Positions 2,823 through 49,750 of a DNA stretch of 50,658 nt are shown piece after piece. The DNA comes from an uncultured Nitrososphaerales archaeon (lineage in GTDB: Archaea > Thermoproteota > Nitrososphaeria > Nitrososphaerales > Nitrososphaeraceae): NCBI GenBank assembly GCA_963709405.1, contig CAVPXM010000070.1, forward strand, positions 1 through 50,658. Reading direction: 5' to 3'. The position numbers and the translations under genes were made by a program. How positions within the stretch are numbered: the first letter of the stretch is position 1; each line of letters starts with the position of its first letter. The notes below the pieces were generated by a model that was given only the letters and a program-made list of their open reading frames with translations, was not told the origin of the DNA and searched no databases.

Positions 2823-3006
2823 GAGATGTGTAGTACAGAATATATAAATGTATACGTATTTACGGCATAGTGCCTAAATATAGATCAATATATCCGTGTA
2901 GACAGGATTTAAGTCTATACAGTAAGATATCTATGATCTAATACATACAGAAATAGATACATCTGTCAGCCAAAGCATACATAAATATACATGTATATAT
3001 AATAAT

Positions 3007-9960: not shown

Positions 9961-11128
9961 CATGGACACTCATTTACTCCGCTCGAAATAGCAAAATTAT
10001 ACAAATTTCCCACAAGGGACGCTAAGGGTACAAAATTGGACGGTTCAGGCCAGCGTATAGCTATAATTGAGTTGGGTGGCGGATTTTATCCTGATGAGTT
10101 AAATGCATATTTTCAAAAGTTAGGAGTTACTATACCCCATATAACATCCATTCCAGTTGGGCATGGTAAGAATGATCCTGGAAAAAACCAAGACTATGAT
10201 GGTGAGGTTATGGTAGACATTACCATAGCAGGTGCAATTTCCCCTGGCGCGAATCTTGTCATTTACTTTTCCGAAAGCTCAACTAAGGGTTTTTTTGATG
10301 CAGTCACTCAGGCAGTGCACGATAGCCAACATAATCCTTCAATAATATCCATTAGCTGGGGCGCCCCAGAAGCTTCATGGGGTCACTTGATGACTGCGAT
10401 GGACCAGGCCCTCCTGGATGCAGGCAGCCTTAGGCAGAACCGTTATTTGTGCTTCAGGAGACCATGGATCATCTGACCTAAGGCCCAACGATGGAGAAAC
10501 GATATCTGATCCCTTGGCGCATGTAGAATTTCCAGCGTCGAGCCCATTTGTTCTGGCATGTGGCGGTACTAGATTACCTTCATCTAATGATATGATTACT
10601 GGTAACGAGATTGCTTGGAACGATGGAGTTCTTGCAACTGGTGGTGGCGTAAGCGAATACTTTAAGCGACCCAACTATCAACTTGGAATAAGAATTCCGC
10701 AATCAGTGAATAATACAGAGTTCGATGGGCGCGGCGTACCTGATGTAGCTGGTATTGCCAGTCCTGGCTACAATATACCTGTTAACGGACAAGAAGAGCC
10801 TGAAGGGAGGGACGGAACTAGTGCGGTCGCTCCGCTATGGTCTGGAATGATAGCTCTCATAAACCAAAGCATTGGCAAGCCAGTAGGTTTTATCAACCCA
10901 TTGCTTTATAAGCACCCCGCTTTTAATGGTGTATTATTTGATATTCTCAAAGGCAGTAACGGTGTCAAAAATGTGAAGCTGGCCGGAACCGGCAAGATGA
11001 ATGTAAAAGGATACAAAGCACGTAAGGGTTGGGATGCCTGTACAGGTTTAGGTAGCCCTAATGGATTCAAATTGTTAAATGCACTAAAAGGTAATATTTT
11101 TTCAAAGGACGGGATCAGAAGAAATTGA
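9961..11128 (+). pseudogene. S53 (kumamolisin/sedolisin) peptidase catalytic domain, frameshifted near 10423, prodomain absent
   Basis: SFTPLEIAKLYKFP, GQRIAIIELGGG, DGEVMVD (E/D), ISISWG, SGDHG, GRGVPDVA, GTSAVAP (Ser), GWDACTGLGSP; in-frame stop at 9955-9957 upstream. Confidence 0.88.
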
Positions 11129-19297: not shown

Positions 19298-19612
19298 TTG
19301 TCTGACCTCAGCCAAAATATCGGCAACTACCTTATTCAACGATTATACGATCATGGTGTTCGTCATATATTTGGTGTGCCGGGAGATTTTGTGCTTGGAT
19401 TTTATCAAGAATTAATCCAGTCAAATAAACTCAAGGTCATTAATACATGTGATGAACAAGGAGCAGCATTTGCAGCAGATGCGTATGCTCGTGTTAGTGG
19501 GTTAGGCGTTGTATGTGTGACATGTTGTGTAGGTGGATTGAAGGTTGTTAACGGTGTGGCTCAGGCATTTGCTGAAAAATCTCCGTTTGTAGTGATATCT
19601 GGTTATTTATGA
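19298..19612 (+). pseudogene. N-terminal fragment of a TPP-dependent alpha-keto acid (pyruvate/indolepyruvate) decarboxylase
   Basis: [49 protein letters not shown]; stops at 104 aa of a normally much longer enzyme. Confidence 0.88.
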
Positions 19613-35639: not shown

Positions 35640-36561
35640 TTAGTTTCTTTTTGAAACTTCTAACGCTTTCAGAGCACTCTTTTCTTTATCTTTTAGTTCA
35701 AGCATTATATCAAAATCCAAACCTTCGGTTTCTTTTAGGAATGTTTTAAATAATCTTGTATCAATTGTTTCTGCATGTTTACCTTTTCTGTTTTTATTAT
35801 TTCTTTCATTTCCTAGATCTTGACTACTATAATCAACTATTGGTAAACCATCTCTATTTCTATCCCATGTCGACATAGCTTCTTCAAGAGCAATTTTCAC
35901 AGATTCTCCATTACCGTAACACTCATGATGAAAGCTATCAAAAACTATTGGAATGCCCCCTGTCTGTTGATTGATATAAAGGCAATCTTTTAGATTATAA
36001 AGGTGATCATCGTTTTCTATGACGAGTCTTTTTTTAATCATGTCACCATCATCTAACATATTGATATTGTTATCATATGTCTTAAGAAAGCGGTCTATTG
36101 CTTCTAGTTTATTTCCATAAACACCTGCCACATGTATTTGCACCTTTGCTGTTTCATCAAGACGCATTGTATCTAAAACCTTACAATGATATTTTAATTC
36201 ATTAATGCTGTTTTCTAATATCTTACTGTCACGGGAGTTAAGAATAACGAATTGATCAGGATGCATAGAAATACGAATGTTGTGCTTTTTAATGTAATCA
36301 CCAATCTGTTCAAATTCCGATTGAAAAAACTTGTACCAACCAAATTTACAAATTGGATGTGAGGCAAAAAGAAACTAAGTCTGAGCTAATTCTAAAAAAT
36401 AATAAATTGCTTTTGACATTGTACTTGAGAATTTCATTCAAACGAATTAAGTTGTTTTTAACAGTTTGAATTAGACTGCTTTCGGAATAAGATGCTAATC
36501 TAAAAGTAGAAGGAGCCTTTCGTGGAATACTGTTATTTATACAAGGATATCCTATTTTCAT
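35640..36561 (-). pseudogene. uvsE: UV DNA damage endonuclease UvsE/UVDE with a single +1 frameshift in a T5 run (36366-36370)
   Basis: MKIGYPCIN, TFRLAS, FFRISSDLV/ASHP, RISMHPDQFVILNS, QIHVAGVYG, LVIENDD, IVFDSFHH, GKHAE, DIMLELKDKE; 922 nt = 3n+1. Confidence 0.93.
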
Positions 36562-36743
36562 GGTGAGGTATTTTAGTTTTTTTAAGAGTATAGAGCTGGA
36601 TCTTAGATATATGCTCAAAACTTATGATGCGATCCATGATTGTTTTCGTTTGGAATCGTGAGTTCATCGCACGGTGTGTTAAGGAATACAAATTATAATT
36701 TGTAAATAAGAATTAGAAAAGGTCAGACTTATTTGTTTCCATT

Positions 36744-37094
36744 TTAGTTGTTCGGCCGTATTCCAATAATATTTTTTTGCGGATCTTCCAATACAGCATA
36801 ATATCCTTCGGATATTTCCTATTTATCTTTGACAACTATTCTTCCAAGTTGATCTGCTTTGGTTATGCAATCTTCTAGTGATCCCACATTGACAAATTGT
36901 GTTGATACTTGTTATGGACATTCTTTCTGCATTAGTGCTCCACTAATTCCACGATTTTTATCATATCGTAGCCTTGTGTTTGCCATTCTTAAGTCTTGGC
37001 CAAATAATGAAGAATAAAGTTCCAAGCATTCTACTTCGTCTGGAGGTACTTCTAAATGACCTAATACATATTTGATACCATTATTTCTTTGCAC
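36744..37094 (-). pseudogene. VOC/glyoxalase-family relic
   Basis: HLEVPPDEVE..YSSLFG, GISGALM, then past stops QFVNVGSLEDCI..GYYAVLEDPQKNIIGI. Confidence 0.75.
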
Positions 37095-37725
37095 AATATT
37101 TCACCCGATTTTTGCTTTCATCCTAATATTCCACCTAATTCTAGCTTTTGCTTTAATGTCCGTGAGCCTGTTCCAGTACTTATCTTATCTTGCCATCTGC
37201 TTGGCTATCTGATAACATGTTTGCGATTTTCCCAGTTGTACGAAGCTCGGAATCAATTGAATCCTTTAGTGTATAGTATATGTTCAGTTTCCTTGAAACT
37301 ATCTTATACTATCCCATTTCTTAAATGGCCCCTGAATTTGTATCGTAACTAACCTGCTATTCTCTTCCTTATCTACTGCTTCTCATCGCATTTCTTCTTG
37401 TTTTCCCATGTATTGACCTTTTACTCTTTCTGAGCATTCTTCATTTTTTGAATCTGATATATCTTCAGATTCTTTTGCTATTTATTGTGGCCATGTTTCT
37501 TGTAAGTTACTTGGAATTGTGTAGTATTCAGAGACTCTTTCAATGGGCACATTAGGATTTGTTTGATATGGAACTTGTGTCATATCGCTGGGATCTGTCT
37601 CATATTGTATTAAAGGATTGGACATAGTGTGATGTAGTTAGGCTCTATAATGATTTATGATATGATATAGTCCATTTACCATAAACTTTGTTCTGATTCA
37701 TCGAATGATGCAGAAGCAATACTTC

Positions 37726-37767
37726 AAGTTAGCACTATGCTGATAAATTAGCACGCGTTTATATATA
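37726..37767 (+). promoter_or_regulatory. Promoter P1 with putative operator
   Basis: AAGTTAGCACTATG (37726-37739), second TTAGCA at 37748, TTTATATATA at 37758, ATG exactly 30 nt later. Confidence 0.75.
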
Positions 37768-37787
37768 ACCTCTGGATATTGGAATTT

Positions 37788-37988
37788 ATGAAAATAAATA
37801 ACAAAATTTCGTGGGGACTGGCTACAGGGGCCTTAGGCATAACAATTGCCGGTGCTTTTAATGGTACTGCATTGTTAGGATTAGTAAGCATCACAGCTGG
37901 GGCATTGGCGTTGGTGACTGCACTTTTAGCGAAACAGCAGATAGAGAAAAAGAAATTGAAACCAGAATTGGCATTGGAACTAAAATAA
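37788..37988 (+). CDS. Small two-helix membrane protein with basic tail (66 aa)
   Basis: MKINNKISWGLATGALGITIAGAFNGTALLGLVSITAGALALVTALLAKQQIEKKK; TATA box at -30. Confidence 0.75.
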   Translation: MKINNKISWGLATGALGITIAGAFNGTALLGLVSITAGALALVTALLAKQQIEKKKLKPELALELK

Positions 37989-38208
37989 ATTCTAGCCCAA
38001 AATTTTTTATTCATGAGTTTGGCGACCGGGTGGCATATATCACTTTTAACTTAATGCAGAAGTGCTGAGGTATTCTGACGCTTACCAAGAGACAACATCA
38101 AGAAGCTAATAAAATTAATAAAAGCTTGGAATATCTTTACTGCTGACATATTTTGTATCTTGTTATAAAGGCCCTTGATTCCAAATAACAATTTGATGAT
38201 GCTGAGCT

Positions 38209-38250
38209 AAGTTAGCACTATGTAATATATGTTGGCATTATTTATATATA
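38209..38250 (+). promoter_or_regulatory. Promoter P2 with putative operator
   Basis: AAGTTAGCACTATG (38209-38222), TTGGCA at 38232, TTTATATATA at 38241, ATG exactly 30 nt later. Confidence 0.75.
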
Positions 38251-38270
38251 GAGTATTCCCATGTTTAGTT

Positions 38271-38624
38271 ATGGCAGTAGAACAACAAATTAGATTTGTG
38301 TTAAATTTAAGTCTGGCTGAAAGCTATATCTATGGAACAGCCATTATGTCTGATAAGTGTTATTCAATTAATATTCAGCAAGCAACAGACGATTTAGTTG
38401 TTCTTCCAGCAGATTTCTCTGATATCGAATGGTCAAGTAAAGCATTAGTTTCTTTTGGCCTGTCCATGGCCAGTTATAGTAACAAAATCACCATAATTTC
38501 GGAAATAAAAGTAGGCCCAGGAGATCTTATAGAGGTATACTTAAATCAGGATAATATCCTTCTGGCTCTTGCAAATAACCTTCCTTTGGAGTTGACCTTA
38601 CAGACAAAACCTGTAAGCATGTAA
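38271..38624 (+). CDS. Hypothetical beta-rich protein (117 aa), first gene of a probable operon with the SDR
   Basis: ATG 38271 lies 30 nt after the TATA box; 24-nt gap to the next gene. Confidence 0.7.
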   Translation: MAVEQQIRFVLNLSLAESYIYGTAIMSDKCYSINIQQATDDLVVLPADFSDIEWSSKALVSFGLSMASYSNKITIISEIKVGPGDLIEVYLNQDNILLALANNLPLELTLQTKPVSM

Positions 38625-38648
38625 ATAACAAAGGCAGATAAATAAATT

Positions 38649-40085
38649 ATGCAAGATTATGAAACTGGATATAATGCTAGTTTTGATAGCAAAAAAAAGG
38701 AAGCAAGAGTAAGAATACTGGTGACAGGTGCAAGCGGCTTCATCGGTAGCCGAGTGGTATCCAAACTACTATCGCTTTCCTCATCTCCTCATTTATCTAA
38801 CAATAGCTACGAAATATTATGTTTGACCCGTAACAAAGAATCTTTGAAAGACCGTTATGAAAAACACAAAGATGCTATTAAAATAATCGTGGCAGATGTA
38901 AATGATTATTCTCAACTTGTAAAAGCCATGACTGGAGTAAATATCGCATTTTATCTTATTCATTCAATGGAAGGTTCTTCGAAAGAATGGAAAAAATTTT
39001 CACAAAGAGATCGAATGGCCGCAGAAAATTTCGCTAAGGCTGCTACAGAGTGTGGAGTTGACAGGATCATATATTTAGGAGGATTGATTCATGAAGAGAG
39101 CAAAGAAGAGTACAGCAAGTTATCCGAGCATATGCGCAGTAGAAAAGAAGTTGGTGATATTTTAAGGACATCTTCTGCTAGAGTTACGATTTTCCATGCT
39201 GCAGTAATCTTAGGACAGGGTGGAGGCTCTTTTCAAATGTTAGAATACCTAGTTAAAAGGTTACCCGTGATGGTATGTCCAAAATGGGTCTTGACTAAAT
39301 CTCAACCGATATCAGTAGATGATGTGGTTGAATACCTGGTTAAGTCGATTGATGTGAAGGAAACTGAAGGTAGGGATTTTGATATTGGCGGTACAGAGGT
39401 TCTTACATATCTTCAAATGATGAAACGTTATGCAAAAATGCTAAAGAAATCCATAAAAATAATAATAATACCATTTCTTACTCCAAGATTATCTTCTTAC
39501 TGGGTTGACCTTATTACCCCGGTGAGGGCTTCGTTAGCAAGACCACTGATAGATAGCCTAAAACACGAGGCGATCGTAAAAGACGATGCAATAAAAAAAT
39601 TTATTCCACTTAAGCTAAAAACTTTTGAAGAAGCGATAAAGGCTGCTGAGGAAGAAGAATATGTAAAAAGAAAGACCACAGGACGGCAGCGGACATCACA
39701 CTCTCTAAATAACAAACTTCTCATTGTCTCGTTATTCTTAATGGGAGCTATTGGCTCTACTTACTATATATTGGATACACGGATAGAAGTATTCCAAACT
39801 GGATGGCTAGTTTTAAGTGGTTTGTGGTATATCTCGATTGCCTTTTCCCTTTTTTTCGTCTTCAGTGGAGCAAGGCTTGGAGCCATTACCGCAGGTGTAA
39901 TCGGGTGGATAACTCTTATATTTTGGCTCGTTGATAATATTTATACTGTTTCGGGCAAGTCTTTGATCGCTACGTCTCCTGATATAACAATGGTTTTGAG
40001 AAATTTTGTTGGCGCAGGCATAGCTCCATCAGTTGTAGCAACATCGCATAATGTCTATCATAAAATAAGAGTGAATGGCGTTTGA
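38649..40085 (+). CDS. YbjT-like atypical SDR (NAD(P)-binding) fused to ~4 C-terminal TM helices
   Basis: ILVTGASGFIG, FYLIHSM, IIYLGG, LSEHMRSRKEVG, GGGSFQML, QPISVDDV, LTPRLSSYWVDLITPV..LARPLIDSL; hydrophobic last ~120 aa. Confidence 0.9.
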   Translation: MQDYETGYNASFDSKKKEARVRILVTGASGFIGSRVVSKLLSLSSSPHLSNNSYEILCLTRNKESLKDRYEKHKDAIKIIVADVNDYSQLVKAMTGVNIAFYLIHSMEGSSKEWKKFSQRDRMAAENFAKAATECGVDRIIYLGGLIHEESKEEYSKLSEHMRSRKEVGDILRTSSARVTIFHAAVILGQGGGSFQMLEYLVKRLPVMVCPKWVLTKSQPISVDDVVEYLVKSIDVKETEGRDFDIGGTEVLTYLQMMKRYAKMLKKSIKIIIIPFLTPRLSSYWVDLITPVRASLARPLIDSLKHEAIVKDDAIKKFIPLKLKTFEEAIKAAEEEEYVKRKTTGRQRTSHSLNNKLLIVSLFLMGAIGSTYYILDTRIEVFQTGWLVLSGLWYISIAFSLFFVFSGARLGAITAGVIGWITLIFWLVDNIYTVSGKSLIATSPDITMVLRNFVGAGIAPSVVATSHNVYHKIRVNGV

Positions 40086-40151
40086 CATTTAGTTAGGCAC
40101 TATAAAGGTTTCTAGGCACGTGCTTTTATACTCGGAATTCAATAGACGAAT

Positions 40152-40725
40152 ATGGAAGTTGAAAAAAACCGTCGAGAGAAATTTATACTCTATTGTTCCC
40201 TCGCAGGTTTTATTAGCGCATGGGCCATTTCTGGTCTCCTCGTTGTAGTCGACATTATATCGGGCAGACCCTGCTGGAACATTTTTTGCCATCATTGGGG
40301 TATCATTAGGAATTAGTGATCCGATAGCAGCGCAGTATATTGGCTTCATACTACATGTTCTAACTGGGATGGCTGCAGGCAATGTATTTGGACAAATTTC
40401 ACTTTTCTGGTCAAAGATAGCACCTTACAACTCAAAGGAAGGTATCGTTAAAGGAATCATTGTTGGTATGGCATTATGGATAGTATTGTTTGTTCCACTT
40501 GCAACATTCGTAATACAACCACGGCTTGATTCATTTGCATCTTCAGCACCTAATCAATATATTTATAATATAGCCGGTCATTTTGAAGGCTTGTATCCTA
40601 TTATTATAGGTGGCTCACTCGTATTTCATCTGATATATGGTGCGTTGACTGGCTTTGTCTCTGGAAGGATGGCTGAGATAGAGACATTTACAAGAGTTAA
40701 AAATAATGCGATAGTAAAGCCATGA
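40152..40725 (+). pseudogene. Four-to-five TM membrane protein with intramembrane histidines, single +1 frameshift near 40265
   Basis: MEVEKNRREKFILYCSLAGFISAWAISGLLVVVDII/PAGTFFAIIGVSLG..GFILHVLTGMAAG..LVFHLIYGALTG; 574 nt = 3n+1. Confidence 0.78.
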
Positions 40726-40837
40726 ATTTTTTGTTGTAAAATATTTAATGTAGCTATTTCAGCACCAGAAGCGTGGCTTACTACTAATCGGATATATATG
40801 ATGAAAGATGAAGTATTAATAATATGCCTGATTCAAA

Positions 40838-41713
40838 ATGGTATATATCAGAAATAAGAAAGTAAAAGGGATTGATTACGCTTATCTAGTACGAAGTATA
40901 TGGGATCCCCAAAGAAATGTGTCCCGACAACAGACCATAAAATATCTTGGTAAGGCGTCGCAAATAACAATTGAAGATATTCCAGAAGAATATAGAGATG
41001 ATGCAAAGATTCTGGCCTTTGTGTCAGCATTTAGCTCTGATCATGAAGAAAGGAAAATGCTCGTCTCAAGGATTCAAGGGGAAATGTTTGCGCTGCTAAC
41101 CGATTGCAATATTAATGGTCTTGTCGATCTCTATGAAAAATACTCCAGATTGTTTAGTTTGACCGAATTTTATGATAAGCTGTTAAAACCTGTAATGTAT
41201 AGGATTGGAGACTTGTGGCGGCAAGATAAATTAGATGTCGCAACTGAGCATGCTAGCACCAATACTGCAATTAGCTTGATTAAGATAATAAATGAACGAA
41301 TGACCGGAAGAACTAGAGCGCCTCAAACATCATCCCAATACAAAGCTGTAACTTGTACTCCTGAGGGTGAGCAGCACGGTCTGGCCTGTAACATAATAGA
41401 ATCACTTCTCTTAAACAAGGGATTTAAAGTATACAATATCTCGACATCCGTACCTACAGACTATGTTATAGACTATATACGTGACTTACAACCAGACATC
41501 ATATTTATCTCTATAACTCTTGCAGAAAATATCAAACCAGCCGAAAGACTTGTACAACAAATTCATGCAAAGTATAATAAACTACCAGTTATGGTCGGAG
41601 GTTCCGCATTCAATAAGGTAGACCAATATCAGGACAGCACAATTGATGCCTTTCTTATGAAAAATGCTTCATTTGATGACATAATGAAATTGGTTAAGGT
41701 ATCTTTAATATAA
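40838..41713 (+). CDS. CarH/LitR-like cobalamin-binding regulator (putative photoreceptor) with non-MerR N-terminal domain
   Basis: LLKPVMYRIGDLWRQDKLDVATEH (Wx9EH), CTPEGEQHGLA (ExH), G-KVYNI, PDIIFISITL (SxT), VMVGGSA; basic beta-strand N-terminus. Confidence 0.85.
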   Translation: MVYIRNKKVKGIDYAYLVRSIWDPQRNVSRQQTIKYLGKASQITIEDIPEEYRDDAKILAFVSAFSSDHEERKMLVSRIQGEMFALLTDCNINGLVDLYEKYSRLFSLTEFYDKLLKPVMYRIGDLWRQDKLDVATEHASTNTAISLIKIINERMTGRTRAPQTSSQYKAVTCTPEGEQHGLACNIIESLLLNKGFKVYNISTSVPTDYVIDYIRDLQPDIIFISITLAENIKPAERLVQQIHAKYNKLPVMVGGSAFNKVDQYQDSTIDAFLMKNASFDDIMKLVKVSLI

Positions 41714-41937
41714 AAATAGTAGGTCCTTAATTTAATTAAATAGGTATTAACTACTGGGGTTACAATCAACATAATATAGTAGGCTGCATAGAAAACCTTC
41801 TTAAAGTAACTTAAAGGCGTGATAGCTGGCGACAAGGGAAATATGACCTGCTACTATCAAGATACTATCCAAGATTTGCAAACCCAAGGTATGCTATAGC
41901 CAACTACTATAGAACAAAACGCTTCAAACCGAACATA

Positions 41938-42066
41938 GCCATCTATTCTAAGAAACCTCTCAAGAAATCATACAGTAATTACATTTGATAATCGTGGAGT
42001 TGGAAATACTACGATAAGAGCCAAATTATTCTTGATTCAGCAATTTGCGAATGATACTGTTGATTT
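41938..42066 (+). pseudogene. Alpha/beta-hydrolase fragment
   Basis: PSILRNLSRNHTVITFDNRGVGNTT..IQQFANDT. Confidence 0.7.
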
Positions 42067-42258
42067 AGAATCTTTAGTATATCACATATATCATACTCTC
42101 CTTTCCATTGTGAACATGGTGTTGTTGCCATATATTAGAGCAATAAATCAATTAAGAAAATAATTCTTAGTATATGATCATTGCTGTTATATATTTTCGT
42201 AGTATTAAAAGTCACTGTGCCTCACTACTCTATTGATAATGAGTATTTGAAGTGTCTA

Positions 42259-43209
42259 TTACACACTTAGTACTATATTTAATGAATCATATTTTTCAGC
42301 CTTCAACAATATATAATCAATAACTCCATGACTAGAAGCAGCCTTCATTTCTAAAAGTGATTTATAAAGAATAGTTTCAAGAAATTTTGGGTATTCTCTA
42401 ACAATAATGTTCTTTAATTTTTCTCTGTTCTCAATATAATAATTCGCTAACGGGCCATATACATTTCGGCCTATATACTGGATATCTTTGATTTCGAAAC
42501 CATGTGTTTTAATCATTGATTTAACGTATTCTAACTTGTAATGTTCTGACGCCCAAGTTACAGACAGTATTCCAAGTTTTATAAAAAGTGGTAATGATAA
42601 CAAATTAGAGGCATTTGTTATAACTGGCATTGCTAATACTACAAGTCCGGCGCGTTCTAAGACCCTATTTGATTCTTGTATAAATTGTATCAATGGTTTA
42701 AAATGCTGCGCAGATTCAAAAGCAATTACTCTATCTACAGAATTATTTCTAATTGGTAACATTGTAGAGGTGGCATTTATATGAAATATATTGTTATTTC
42801 TTAAACTCTTAAGAGAGACTAATCCAACGCTATGATCTATTCTTTGACTATTTGACTTGAAAGCGACAGCAATCTTCAATTGTTGTAAATTTATATTTAC
42901 ACATAGCATTTTCAGGAAACCATATTGTGATTTCCATTGAAGTGCCGGAGCAGAGTATCCGCTACCAACATCTACTAAACTTCTTGCTGTCTGCAAGGAC
43001 GCAAATTCTCCAATCATTTTAGAGAGTGTATATTGTGCCTGCAAAGGCTTTTGAGTCTTGTCGTCCCAGTATCCAAAATTGAGCATATTCCCTCCAGTTG
43101 TAATTTGCATTAGGCCTGAGAGGGAATCGTAAAGACTAATAACATCATGTTCATTGCGTCTAAATGTGGATAGAAATAGCTTAAGCAGATTAATCAAAAG
43201 CAATATCAA
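42259..43209 (-). CDS. Class I SAM methyltransferase, sterol/tocopherol/CFA-like clade
   Basis: LYD..MLNFGYW, LVDVGSGYSAPA, INLQQL, SVDRVIAFESAQHF. Confidence 0.85.
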   Translation of the reverse strand: MILLLINLLKLFLSTFRRNEHDVISLYDSLSGLMQITTGGNMLNFGYWDDKTQKPLQAQYTLSKMIGEFASLQTARSLVDVGSGYSAPALQWKSQYGFLKMLCVNINLQQLKIAVAFKSNSQRIDHSVGLVSLKSLRNNNIFHINATSTMLPIRNNSVDRVIAFESAQHFKPLIQFIQESNRVLERAGLVVLAMPVITNASNLLSLPLFIKLGILSVTWASEHYKLEYVKSMIKTHGFEIKDIQYIGRNVYGPLANYYIENREKLKNIIVREYPKFLETILYKSLLEMKAASSHGVIDYILLKAEKYDSLNIVLSV

Positions 43210-46339: not shown

Positions 46340-46800
46340 TTACTAACATGCTGTGAAGACGGCGGACTACAATAGGAACCATCATTACTACAATAGGTTT
46401 TTTTGTCCTTTTCATGTTTCATTCAACGGAGGCTTCGATAGCTGCAGTTCTTGTCTTAGTAGCTGTTGGATTAGCATTAATGCAGATCGGTTCAGTGAAT
46501 GTTGTGCTTACTTCGACTCCGAAGCAATTCAGTGGAATATCATTGGGAATGAATCTTCTAATATATCTTATGGGATCCTCAGTGGGACCTGTGATTGCAG
46601 GAATATATATGCAAGCAAACCAGGTATTTGTAGAATCAGATACACATGGCATTCCAGCCTCATTCCCATCTCCAGAATCATATAATCTAATCTTTCTTAC
46701 GGCTCGCCTTAATTTCAGTGTCATCTATCGCAGTTGCAATTCTTCTAAATAGAAGTATGTCGAACTGGAGTGGAGGTATTAAGGAAATTGGGGTCCCAGA
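46340..46800 (+). pseudogene. MFS transporter C-terminal fragment
   Basis: TM helices LVLVAVGLALM, STPKQFSGISLGMN, GSSVGPVIAG, PSPESYNLIFLTA; N-terminal two-thirds absent. Confidence 0.8.
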
Positions 46801-48778: not shown

Positions 48779-49750
48779 GAGCCTATCCCAAAATTCGATA
48801 CGATTATAGCTCGATGTTGCTTTTGCTAAAGTATGGCCTGTATCCAGAAGAAGAAGGAGAAAGAGGATGATAAAAAGGATAATCGCACCATCATAGCCAT
48901 TCCAGATGAATTGTGGGACGAGATTAAAGTAATTTTACCCAGAGAGAAACCACTCAAAACAGTGGGTCGGCCAATTGTACCATACAGAAGGGTACTTGAT
49001 GGAGTTTTATACATCCTTAGAACTGGCTGTCAATGGAAGATGCTACCCAAAGAGTATGGATCGGGTTCCACATGCCATAGAAGGTTTCAGGAATGGAATA
49101 AACTGGATGTTTTCAAAAAGACATGGGTTCGATTACTGAAAATATATGATCAAATCATTGGTATCAACTGGACATGGCAATCAATCGATAGTATATCCAT
49201 AAAATCGCCTTTAGGGGGGCGATGACCGGAAATAATCCCACGGACAGGAGCAAACTGGGCACAAAAAGACACATTTTAACAGACAAAGAAGGTATACCGC
49301 TTTCGGCGGTCATTTCATCTGCTAGTACCCATGACATTAAACTGGTAATAGATATGGTTGATAATTCAGTTATTAAAAGGCCGTCATCATCATCCAAACC
49401 CAAATCGAGAAGAAAGGGAAGAAGGAGAAGGTTACAACATCTATGTCTTGACAAAGCATATAATTCCACACAAGAAGAACAGGAACTAATCAGGCGGGGA
49501 TATGTACTGCACATTAGTCCCAAAAGAAAGAGGGGTGAAAAAGAGGAGGAGGTCAAGACTGAAACGCAACCTTCCTTAAACCGGAAAAAACATTCTGCAA
49601 AAAGATGGGTTGTGGAAAGGACAAACTCATGGCACAACAGGTTCAGAAAACTGTTCACACGGTATGAAAAGAAGGCAGAGAACTACCTTGGACTGGTACA
49701 GTTCTCCTGTTTTATGATCATCTGTAGAAAGATATTTTTGGGATAGGTTC
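48779..49750 (+). mobile_element. Complete IS5-family insertion sequence (972 bp)
   Basis: IRs GAGCCTATCCCAAAA / TTTTGGGATAGGTTC; flanked by TAA on both sides (48776-78, 49751-53). Confidence 0.93.
48833..49746 (+). CDS. IS5 transposase in two overlapping ORFs (48833..49225, 49222..49746), probable -1 frameshift at G6
   Basis: IPDELW, ILRTGCQWKMLP..STCHRRFQEW, SIDS, PTDRSKLGTKRH, LDKAY, RWVVERTNSW..RFRKL-TRYE. Confidence 0.93.

Follow-up and report, generated by a model that had tools for sequence, protein, structure and literature searches.

Cobalamin-binding protein and its gene cluster

The window analyzed here is a contig of 50,658 nucleotides (CAVPXM010000070.1, C70 of a 4.83-Mb, 91%-complete assembly of 37% G+C) from an uncultured Nitrososphaerales archaeon, and near-identical DNA is present in soil, peat and rhizosphere metagenomes. 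It contains a run of co-oriented plus-strand genes that begins at 37788 and ends with a 291-residue B12-binding protein, hereafter the regulator, whose closest homologs come from Nitrososphaeraceae metagenome-assembled genomes. A first-pass annotation, which had positioned these genes correctly, read the run as a light-sensing module built around a CarH-type protein, with membrane modification and UV repair as its outputs. As can be seen in Table 1, the run also contains three copies of a direct-repeat operator.

Table 1. Genes and operator sites of the locus, in window coordinates
Feature	Position	Strand	Basis and remarks
uvsE UV-damage endonuclease, left of cluster	35640..36561	-	PF03851; frameshift at 36366
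VOC/glyoxalase-like gene, ends approximate	36741..37094	-	tblastn 52% to intact homolog in locus L032; frameshift at 36916
Operator 1	37729..37764	+	TTAGCACTAT at 37729, second copy 37748, TATA from 37758; ATG 59 bp after first site; score 30.6
Hydrophobic protein, 66 aa, no assigned function, operator-led	37788..37988 (ATG 37788)	+	first gene behind 17 sites
Operator 2	38212..38248	+	TTAGCACTAT at 38212, second copy 38232, TATA directly behind; leads unknown protein and SDR; score 34.0
117-aa unknown protein, operator-led	38271..38624 (ATG 38271)	+	first gene behind 19 sites
Atypical short-chain dehydrogenase/reductase (SDR), NAD(P)H-binding, hydrophobic C-terminal membrane tail	38649..40085	+	PF13460/PF05368
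Operator 3	40094..40130	+	TAGGCACTAT at 40094, second copy 40113, TATA from ~40124; leads membrane protein; score 27.5
Membrane protein, three conserved His, DUF6789-related	40152..40725 (ATG 40152)	+	hhalign probability 89 to DUF6789 neighbor family
Decayed operator pair before regulator gene	40759..40787	+	score <8 here
Regulator, 291 aa	40838..41713	+	PF02607 and PF02310, over cut-off (Pfam)
Class I S-adenosylmethionine (SAM) methyltransferase, convergent	42259..43209	-	below-cut-off CMAS match

The regulator combines a four-helix cap with a Rossmann cobalamin-binding domain (CBD) of the CarH type. It carries G124xxW127-x9-E137H138, G177ExH180 and P206, and these seven residues are kept together in 121 of 125 distinct homologs from ammonia-oxidizing archaea (AOA); taken singly, G124 and H180 occur in all 125, W127, E137, H138 and the final Pro in 124, and G177 in 123. 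The W-x9-EH motif and the lower His mark adenosylcobalamin (AdoCbl) photoreceptors apart from MetH-type domains (PMC8156234, PMC11796333). In a structure model with a pLDDT of 88, the best fold matches are CtMerR (8JBS/8JBT), photocobilin (8J2X) and TtCarH (5C8D), with TM-scores to CarH CBD entries of 0.75-0.84, by target length, among the matches listed; the top fold matches are validated B12 photoreceptors. The score for the NCBIfam CarH equivalog NF052513 is 36 bits against a cut-off of 400, and those for the methanogen-type corrinoid families TIGR02370 and NF041607 are 50.9 against 215 and 38.4 against 350 bits. Moreover, the regulator has an extra conserved N-terminal module (N-module), unlike the MtbC, MttC and MtaC corrinoid proteins. 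The AdoCbl ligand should be available, since CobS, methylmalonyl-CoA mutase and a member of the adenosyltransferase family (its gene in two overlapping pieces) are all present in the genome. The 291-aa protein is, on this evidence, a probable B12 light sensor of new architecture. The label CarH-type describes its AdoCbl-type domain well, but not its N terminus, where in place of a MerR helix-turn-helix (HTH) residues 2-39 form a three-stranded sheet; a Pfam search of the protein gave no MerR match.

The N-module spans residues 1 to about 55, with its three β-strands between residues 2 and 39 of the structure model, and R5, K7, Y14, Y16, W22, Q31 and YLG are near-invariant in AOA homologs. We regard it as a putative DNA-binding module. 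Residues 1-42 align with the IS1634-family transposase P0248, a member of NF033559 (hhalign probability 98, E 1e-13), and are all that the two have in common, the DDE catalytic domain of NF033559 having no match in the regulator. A profile search with the N-module returned 748 representatives at E ≤ 0.001; among the 51 scanned of 150 listed are additional fusions to a CBD, together with three HNH nucleases, an AbiEii-family protein and a single IS1634 transposase. One family, of proteins 155-185 aa long, starts with the same β-sheet module (P0214, P0238, P0241, P0242, P0253, P0255, P0258, P0261-P0263, P0267, P0268), and its scan gave no Pfam match. Known β-sheet DNA-binding folds include the AP2/integrase arm type. 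Scans of the N-module against Pfam, PHROGs and PDB sequences gave nothing usable (best phrog_19732, E 0.0025, in 4 of 28 members), a Foldseek search was empty at E ≤ 0.001, and VIA-align reached a best Z of 4.5 (root-mean-square deviation 3.2, 60 residues aligned); ESM Atlas scores were 0.77. Such failed matches do not make the fold new.

Around the regulator, the 66-aa hydrophobic protein has no Pfam or NCBIfam match, and the 117-aa protein is homologous to a Nitrosopumilaceae family that adjoins the regulator there (hhalign probability 96.5). The uvsE gene does lie to the left on the minus strand, as first annotated, but is not directly divergent, the VOC/glyoxalase-like gene standing in between; likewise, the class I methyltransferase is indeed convergent, but the epithet "lipid-type" goes back only to a CMAS match of 19 bits against a cut-off of 27. 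One-base frameshifts, each an extra base, interrupt uvsE (36366), the VOC gene (36916) and the membrane gene (40268) in this assembly. In the contigs of other public runs (4 of 24 listed runs with matching contigs were used), the extra base is missing in 3 of 3, 2 of 3 and 4 of 4 covering runs, respectively. The three frameshifts are therefore probably assembly errors and the island is probably intact; pseudogene decay was dropped as an explanation on the same grounds. Many more genes look split window-wide (e.g., 1711-2822, 10036-11128, 19298-19612 and 46353-46752; also G000:C38:62311-62845 elsewhere in the genome), in keeping with single-base assembly errors, three places having been compared with other runs. 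Between the regulator and the methyltransferase, 41880-42060 holds a short degraded α/β-hydrolase-like remnant, of which other contigs match a short part before diverging. Farther right, 48833-49746 contains a two-frame gene that looks like a transposase of the IS5 type.

Distribution of the regulator and its operator

The search for the regulator covered 301 genomes of the class. Of these, 146 matched at E ≤ 1e-10, and the 119 with a best E ≤ 1e-30 are counted as carriers; among the 27 weaker matches, those listed are mostly frames of about 840 aa, the size of methionine synthase, or fragments. All carriers belong to three families of the order, in which 119 of 237 sampled genomes, about half, have the gene. 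Ca. Nitrosotenuis chungbukensis MY2 and Ca. Nitrosopumilus salarius BD31 are cultured or enriched organisms with the regulator. A FastTree phylogeny of the regulators (midpoint-rooted, with long branches) broadly tracks these families, which fits inheritance with many losses.

The operator is a direct repeat, TTAGCACTA/TAGGCACTA, whose copies lie 19 bp apart and abut the TATA box, and it precedes three promoters in the window. The third of these probably leads the regulator gene in addition to the membrane gene, before which its position is conserved (34 distinct sites); the pair immediately upstream of the regulator is strong in the relatives at loci L105 and L110-L115 (score 24-34) and weak in the window. 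When a position weight matrix trained on 155 sites from other genomes was applied to the 4.83-Mb genome, the sites at 38212, 37729 and 40094 ranked first, third and fourth, the maximum for the reversed genome being 24.0. The second-best site in the genome is G000:C27:13814, behind which no recognizable conserved gene was found. Without any matrix, TTAGCACT emerged as the top de novo 8-mer near the regulator, with 75 copies in 42 of 59 loci vs. 3 copies in 3 loci for an equal amount of intergenic DNA more than 5 kb away. Among 397 sites in all, 139 are followed by a second copy at +18 to +20 and 169 by a TATA box at +28 to +30. Over 2.04 Mb of loci, the matrix detected 286 sites vs. none in the reversed control; the regulator is the first gene behind 70 of them, the most frequent position, and the start codon lies 57-60 bp past the site in 177 of the 271 that have a gene. 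The CarH operator consists of tandem 11-bp direct repeats, and the present sites differ from it in spacing (18-20 bp) and in word.

At the genome level, a strict form of the pattern occurs in 76 of 301 genomes, namely in 75 of 119 carriers, a count that is partly circular since the pattern was derived from carriers' loci, and in 1 of 182 others, a count that is not; the reversed control gave 2 hits in 301. The sole match in a non-carrier (G032) precedes a broken regulator copy. Within a single genus of 67 genomes, the operator is present in 35 of 39 carriers vs. 1 of 28 non-carriers. None of the six carriers of family f3 has a strict match, their sites being of the TAGGCACTA type, and G190 has operators with no regulator found in its 120-contig assembly. 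A loose single-site pattern was rejected as a definer of targets, because its 123 hits in the genome were too many.

Two further sets of sites were noted. A single TAGGCACTAT at 2867-2876 (minus strand), about 29 bp upstream of a TATA-like box and below the composite threshold, precedes a split gene labeled from its translation as nucleotide-sugar-dehydrogenase-like. At L178:2821-3050, L179:5059 (minus), L185:2839-3070 and L187:3400-3600, strong operators lead non-coding, repeated, hairpin-like units ending in CTTAAG; these stretches, for which a search gave no Rfam match, are possibly regulated structured RNA. In two of the cases, the start of the next gene looks like that of a nitroreductase.

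The conserved linkage across other genomes that had been set beforehand as a test is indeed seen, in three AOA families, with the operator tracking the regulator and UV-repair genes as frequent neighbors. The most constant partner is the SDR, present in 91 genomes, 86 of them carriers. In two overlapping sets of loci, 26 of 60 and 51 of 80 have it no more than about 8 kb from the regulator; this linkage exceeds chance. Photolyase is found in 38 genomes of the order, 36 of them carriers, and within the genus of 67 genomes mentioned above in 15 of 39 carriers vs. 0 of 28 non-carriers, and 13 of the 14 genomes with a clear uvsE match are carriers. In 60 selected neighborhoods, the recurrent partners are the SDR (26), DUF1722 (15), the transcription factor TFB (15), DUF6789 (13), flavin oxidoreductase (11), pyrimidine-dimer glycosylases (8 plus 5), SRPBCC (8 plus 5) and photolyase (6); 19 of these 60, and 18 of another set of 80 loci that overlaps it in part, contain a UV-repair gene. 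DUF1722/DUF523, YfcH and fasciclin are members of proteobacterial blue-light or photo-oxidative regulons. A search with the N-module profile of five genomes positive for SDR or photolyase and without a full regulator found one decayed remnant.

The island has other recurrent inhabitants. Among them are TFB paralogs and a family whose members repeat a VPxWVKNNAGWW domain (L055, L059, L060, L062, L084, L161 and others); this repeat family is the first gene behind 46 operator sites. The genome also has two further island-type clusters, G000:C54:68749-71408 (DUF6789, a small-protein paralog and a PPOX-like gene) and G000:C53:148881-151025 (a paralog of the 117-aa unknown and an NADH-dehydrogenase-like gene), neither with a high-scoring operator.

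Loci of Marine Group III and other Thermoplasmatota-like archaea

Metagenome contigs were scanned with twelve divergent fusions, one of which is named Ca. Thermoplasmatota by its source, and 80 of 335 matches were taken as loci. Among the matches listed, at least 42 loci form a marine group, whose regulators are 69-100% alike and which count as one lineage. Its identity is indicated by one locus with an archaeal 23S rRNA gene and by a desaturase cluster that includes members named Marine Group III CG-Epi2. The gene order is operator, SRPBCC-YfcH (TIGR01777), phytoene desaturase (crtI, TIGR02734), regulator, operator and phytoene synthase (crtB, PF00494); again among the matches listed, crtI is present in 37 and crtB in 36 of the 42 loci, and a photolyase directly follows the synthase in 6. 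The word TAGGCACT precedes yfcH in 27 of 27 cases and crtB in 27 of 36, eight more having TAGGCACC, and it occurs 60 times in 376 kb vs. 5 times for the reversed word, within the same set of matches. Carotenoid genes such as those beside this regulator are the classical output of CarH. Most marine regulator genes seem to start with ATA overlapping the crtI stop (L253:1786-8055, L309:5057-9853 and 40 similar), and gene callers may therefore truncate or miss them.

The placement of sites varies outside AOA, where they are also found reversed, downstream of the TATA box or beside the start codon. In Marine Group III, a further operator copy lies between TATA and start. In a G+C-rich group, the two repeats are in reversed orientation with respect to the TATA box of the regulator, while fasciclin genes and a family that is also found in the AOA island are preceded by sites; in a second G+C-rich group of 16 loci, the regulator follows an MMPL gene and has no site immediately before it. 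The same pairing of protein and operator word is present in a second phylum.

Proposed mechanism, alternatives and related systems

Judged from sequence comparison, this is a real, conserved regulon with a well-supported operator, and we think it likely that the regulator serves it as an AdoCbl-dependent dark repressor that is released by light. In the dark, the AdoCbl-loaded C-terminal domains would oligomerize, by analogy with CarH, and the oligomer would hold two or more N-modules on the operator, whose paired direct repeats of 9-10 bp stand at a distance of about 19 bp. Next to the TATA box, the downstream repeat lies over the TFB-recognition element (BRE), and its occupation would block the assembly of TFB and TBP. 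Light would break the Co-C bond, the oligomer would fall apart, and short-leader transcripts would then start about 57-60 bp behind the first site. The proposed targets are the regulator itself, the SDR, the small membrane and unknown proteins and flavin oxidoreductases, to which the island in other AOA would add DUF1722/DUF523, photolyase and pyrimidine-dimer glycosylase; in Marine Group III, they would be the yfcH-crtI and crtB-photolyase units. We favor repression because the overlap with the BRE, the reversed sites and the sites downstream of TATA suit a steric repressor, and light as the input because of the signature residues, the co-occurrence with photolyase and the carotenoid context in Marine Group III. 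With more reserve, we lean toward a wider conclusion: transcription factors that act as B12 photoreceptors would form one archaeal family across phyla, joining a CarH sensor to a transposase-type β-sheet DNA reader and using one operator word from ammonia oxidizers to Marine Group III and other Thermoplasmatota-like archaea, giving AOA a direct light switch that may explain strain differences in photoinhibition and placing the carotenoid synthesis of surface-ocean Marine Group III under light control.

Several observations weigh against this picture. The Gly of the GxxxP signature is Ser in 74, Gly in 21 and Ala in 19 of the 125 AOA homologs (Thr in some), the window protein having Ser, and the Marine Group III copies lack the final signature Pro and have a CBD insertion at that place; the His that follows the Trp in TtCarH is not a common residue in any column of the homologs. 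The N-module is without a Pfam, PDB or clear fold match. As for the operator, the strict-pattern positives are, as said, partly circular, 44 of the 119 carriers lack a strict operator, and the SDR operons of genera g2 and g4 contain no site scoring above 18; genomes and metagenome loci are also related, which makes all counts overstate independence. Most operator-led targets in AOA, like the operator-led genes of this organism, have no known function, and the 91%-complete assembly yielded neither a photolyase nor a phytoene synthase. Finally, the sole RNA run with matches yielded contigs of a relative, at 90-99% identity.

The protein and operator could also be as described and the input be cobalamin supply or redox/peroxide, the cobalt centre reporting the form or oxidation of its ligand to what would be a general oxidative-stress regulon. 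In its favor, some carriers live in soil and peat, oxidoreductases and unknowns make up many of the targets, neither photolyase nor carotenoid synthase was found in this genome, and a Vibrio MerR-like regulator of phr responds to blue light via reactive oxygen species (ROS) (PMC5241685). What makes us judge this unlikely is that the Ado-capping W-x9-EH is nearly invariant, that Marine Group III copies sit inside crtI-crtB-photolyase units, and that photolyase, an enzyme requiring light for its activity, is almost confined to regulator-positive genomes (36 of 38). Light might instead control an activator or dual regulator. Bound about 29 bp upstream of TATA, it would recruit TFB in the manner of some archaeal activators; the strong first site does keep a constant distance of 28-30 bp upstream of TATA, and of the two copies the one nearer to TATA is more degenerate. 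This we hold to be very unlikely, however, as the second copy covers the BRE position, the pair outside AOA is reversed relative to TATA, a Marine Group III copy lies between TATA and start, and dark activation would express photoprotection genes at the wrong time. It is most improbable that the B12 protein is an MtbC-like corrinoid carrier or a passenger, with another factor reading the operator. Source names such as "methanogenic corrinoid protein MtbC1", best NCBIfam matches to corrinoid proteins (all far below cut-off) and the putative nature of DNA binding by the N-module speak for it. The operator is, on the other side, nearly confined to regulator-bearing genomes and most often placed before the regulator (70 of 286 sites), protein and word also occur together in a second phylum, the N-module hardly varies in its basic and aromatic residues, and the 60 neighborhoods hold no other recurrent DNA-binding gene except TFB (15 of 60) and a CopG-like gene (6 of 60).

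A further alternative concerns only what is controlled here and corresponds to the outputs first annotated: the convergent methyltransferase would modify the membrane and uvsE would repair UV damage, both under direct control. We find this decidedly unlikely. The methyltransferase, which has no operator, occurs in 204 of 301 genomes irrespective of the regulator, and the two genes are no more than 3 kb apart in 1 of 140 loci; this near-core, unlinked AOA gene was therefore rejected as a member of the regulon, and membrane modification through it as an output. As for uvsE, 13 of the 14 genomes that have the gene also have the regulator, the two are no more than 3 kb apart in 3 of 140 loci, an operator points at uvsE in locus L121, and the operator at 37729 is close to the start of the leftward region. 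The gene is near the regulator in 5 of 80 and 0 of 60 loci, however, and no operator in the window is oriented toward it or toward the methyltransferase; among the 19 uvsE upstream regions examined, one of them (L197) misplaced, only that of L121 contains a site. Direct operator control of uvsE is thus not supported, the gene being a companion of the regulator that has no operator of its own in the window. The VOC/glyoxalase-like gene is a neighbor in 10 of 140 loci and has no operator of its own in the window.

AOA are among the major nitrifiers. That light inhibits them is well documented, and to our knowledge no sensing mechanism for it is known. If the dark-repressor reading is right, B12 photoreception extends to Archaea, the unannotated β-sheet module shared with IS1634 transposases acquires a function, and a green-light switch becomes usable on TATA-type promoters. 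With the regulator in about half of the order's sampled genomes, its presence or absence could predict light tolerance, and regulator, operator and target list make light sensing in AOA directly testable. The literature searched, with most subscription journals outside its scope, contained no description of this protein or operator, and AOA photolyases or photoinhibition have been discussed without a regulator in passages of PMC13591554 and PMC9891703.

Known systems resemble this one in part. Halobacterium Bat is an archaeal transcription factor linked to the light/redox control of pigment genes, but it is an activator that combines a PAS/GAF sensor with an HTH and uses no cobalamin. In Vibrio cholerae, MerR-like VCA0056 lies beside the photolyase gene phr and controls its own gene, and ChrR likewise belongs to the blue-light/photo-oxidative regulons of proteobacteria; the signal there is relayed by ROS and the regulon contains a CFA (cyclopropane fatty acid) synthase, whereas here the AdoCbl signature is full and the methyltransferase falls outside the regulon (PMC5241685). 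The N-module of the IS1634-family transposase is shared in residues 1-42, and HNH nucleases and an AbiEii-family protein start with this module too, but the DDE domain is absent here. CtMerR and the photocobilins (PMC11796333; 8JBS, 8JBT, 8J2W-8J2Y) are the regulator's best sequence and fold matches. The light-responsive CBDs defined by SignatureFinder in that work carry GxxW, EH, GxxH and GxxxP, of which the first three are present here; the output domains described there are HTH, DGC, BBD, GAF and MEDS, and its main text and supplement text name no archaeal protein and no β-sheet module, the 1561-sequence online network being outside the search. A close parallel is CarH/class I LitR of Thermus thermophilus, Bacillus megaterium and Myxococcus xanthus (PDB 5C8D-5C8F). 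Common to both are the four-helix cap, the Rossmann AdoCbl domain, W-x9-EH and the lower His, a direct-repeat operator overlapping the promoter and, in the Marine Group III branch, carotenoid targets (PMC8156234). The archaeal protein differs in lacking the MerR winged helix and the His after the Trp, in its 9-10 bp repeats at about 19-bp spacing on TATA/BRE, as opposed to tandem 11-bp repeats at a sigma-A promoter, and in an archaeal host whose AOA targets are mostly non-carotenoid. It would work like CarH without being a member of that family by the MerR, operator or NCBIfam tests.

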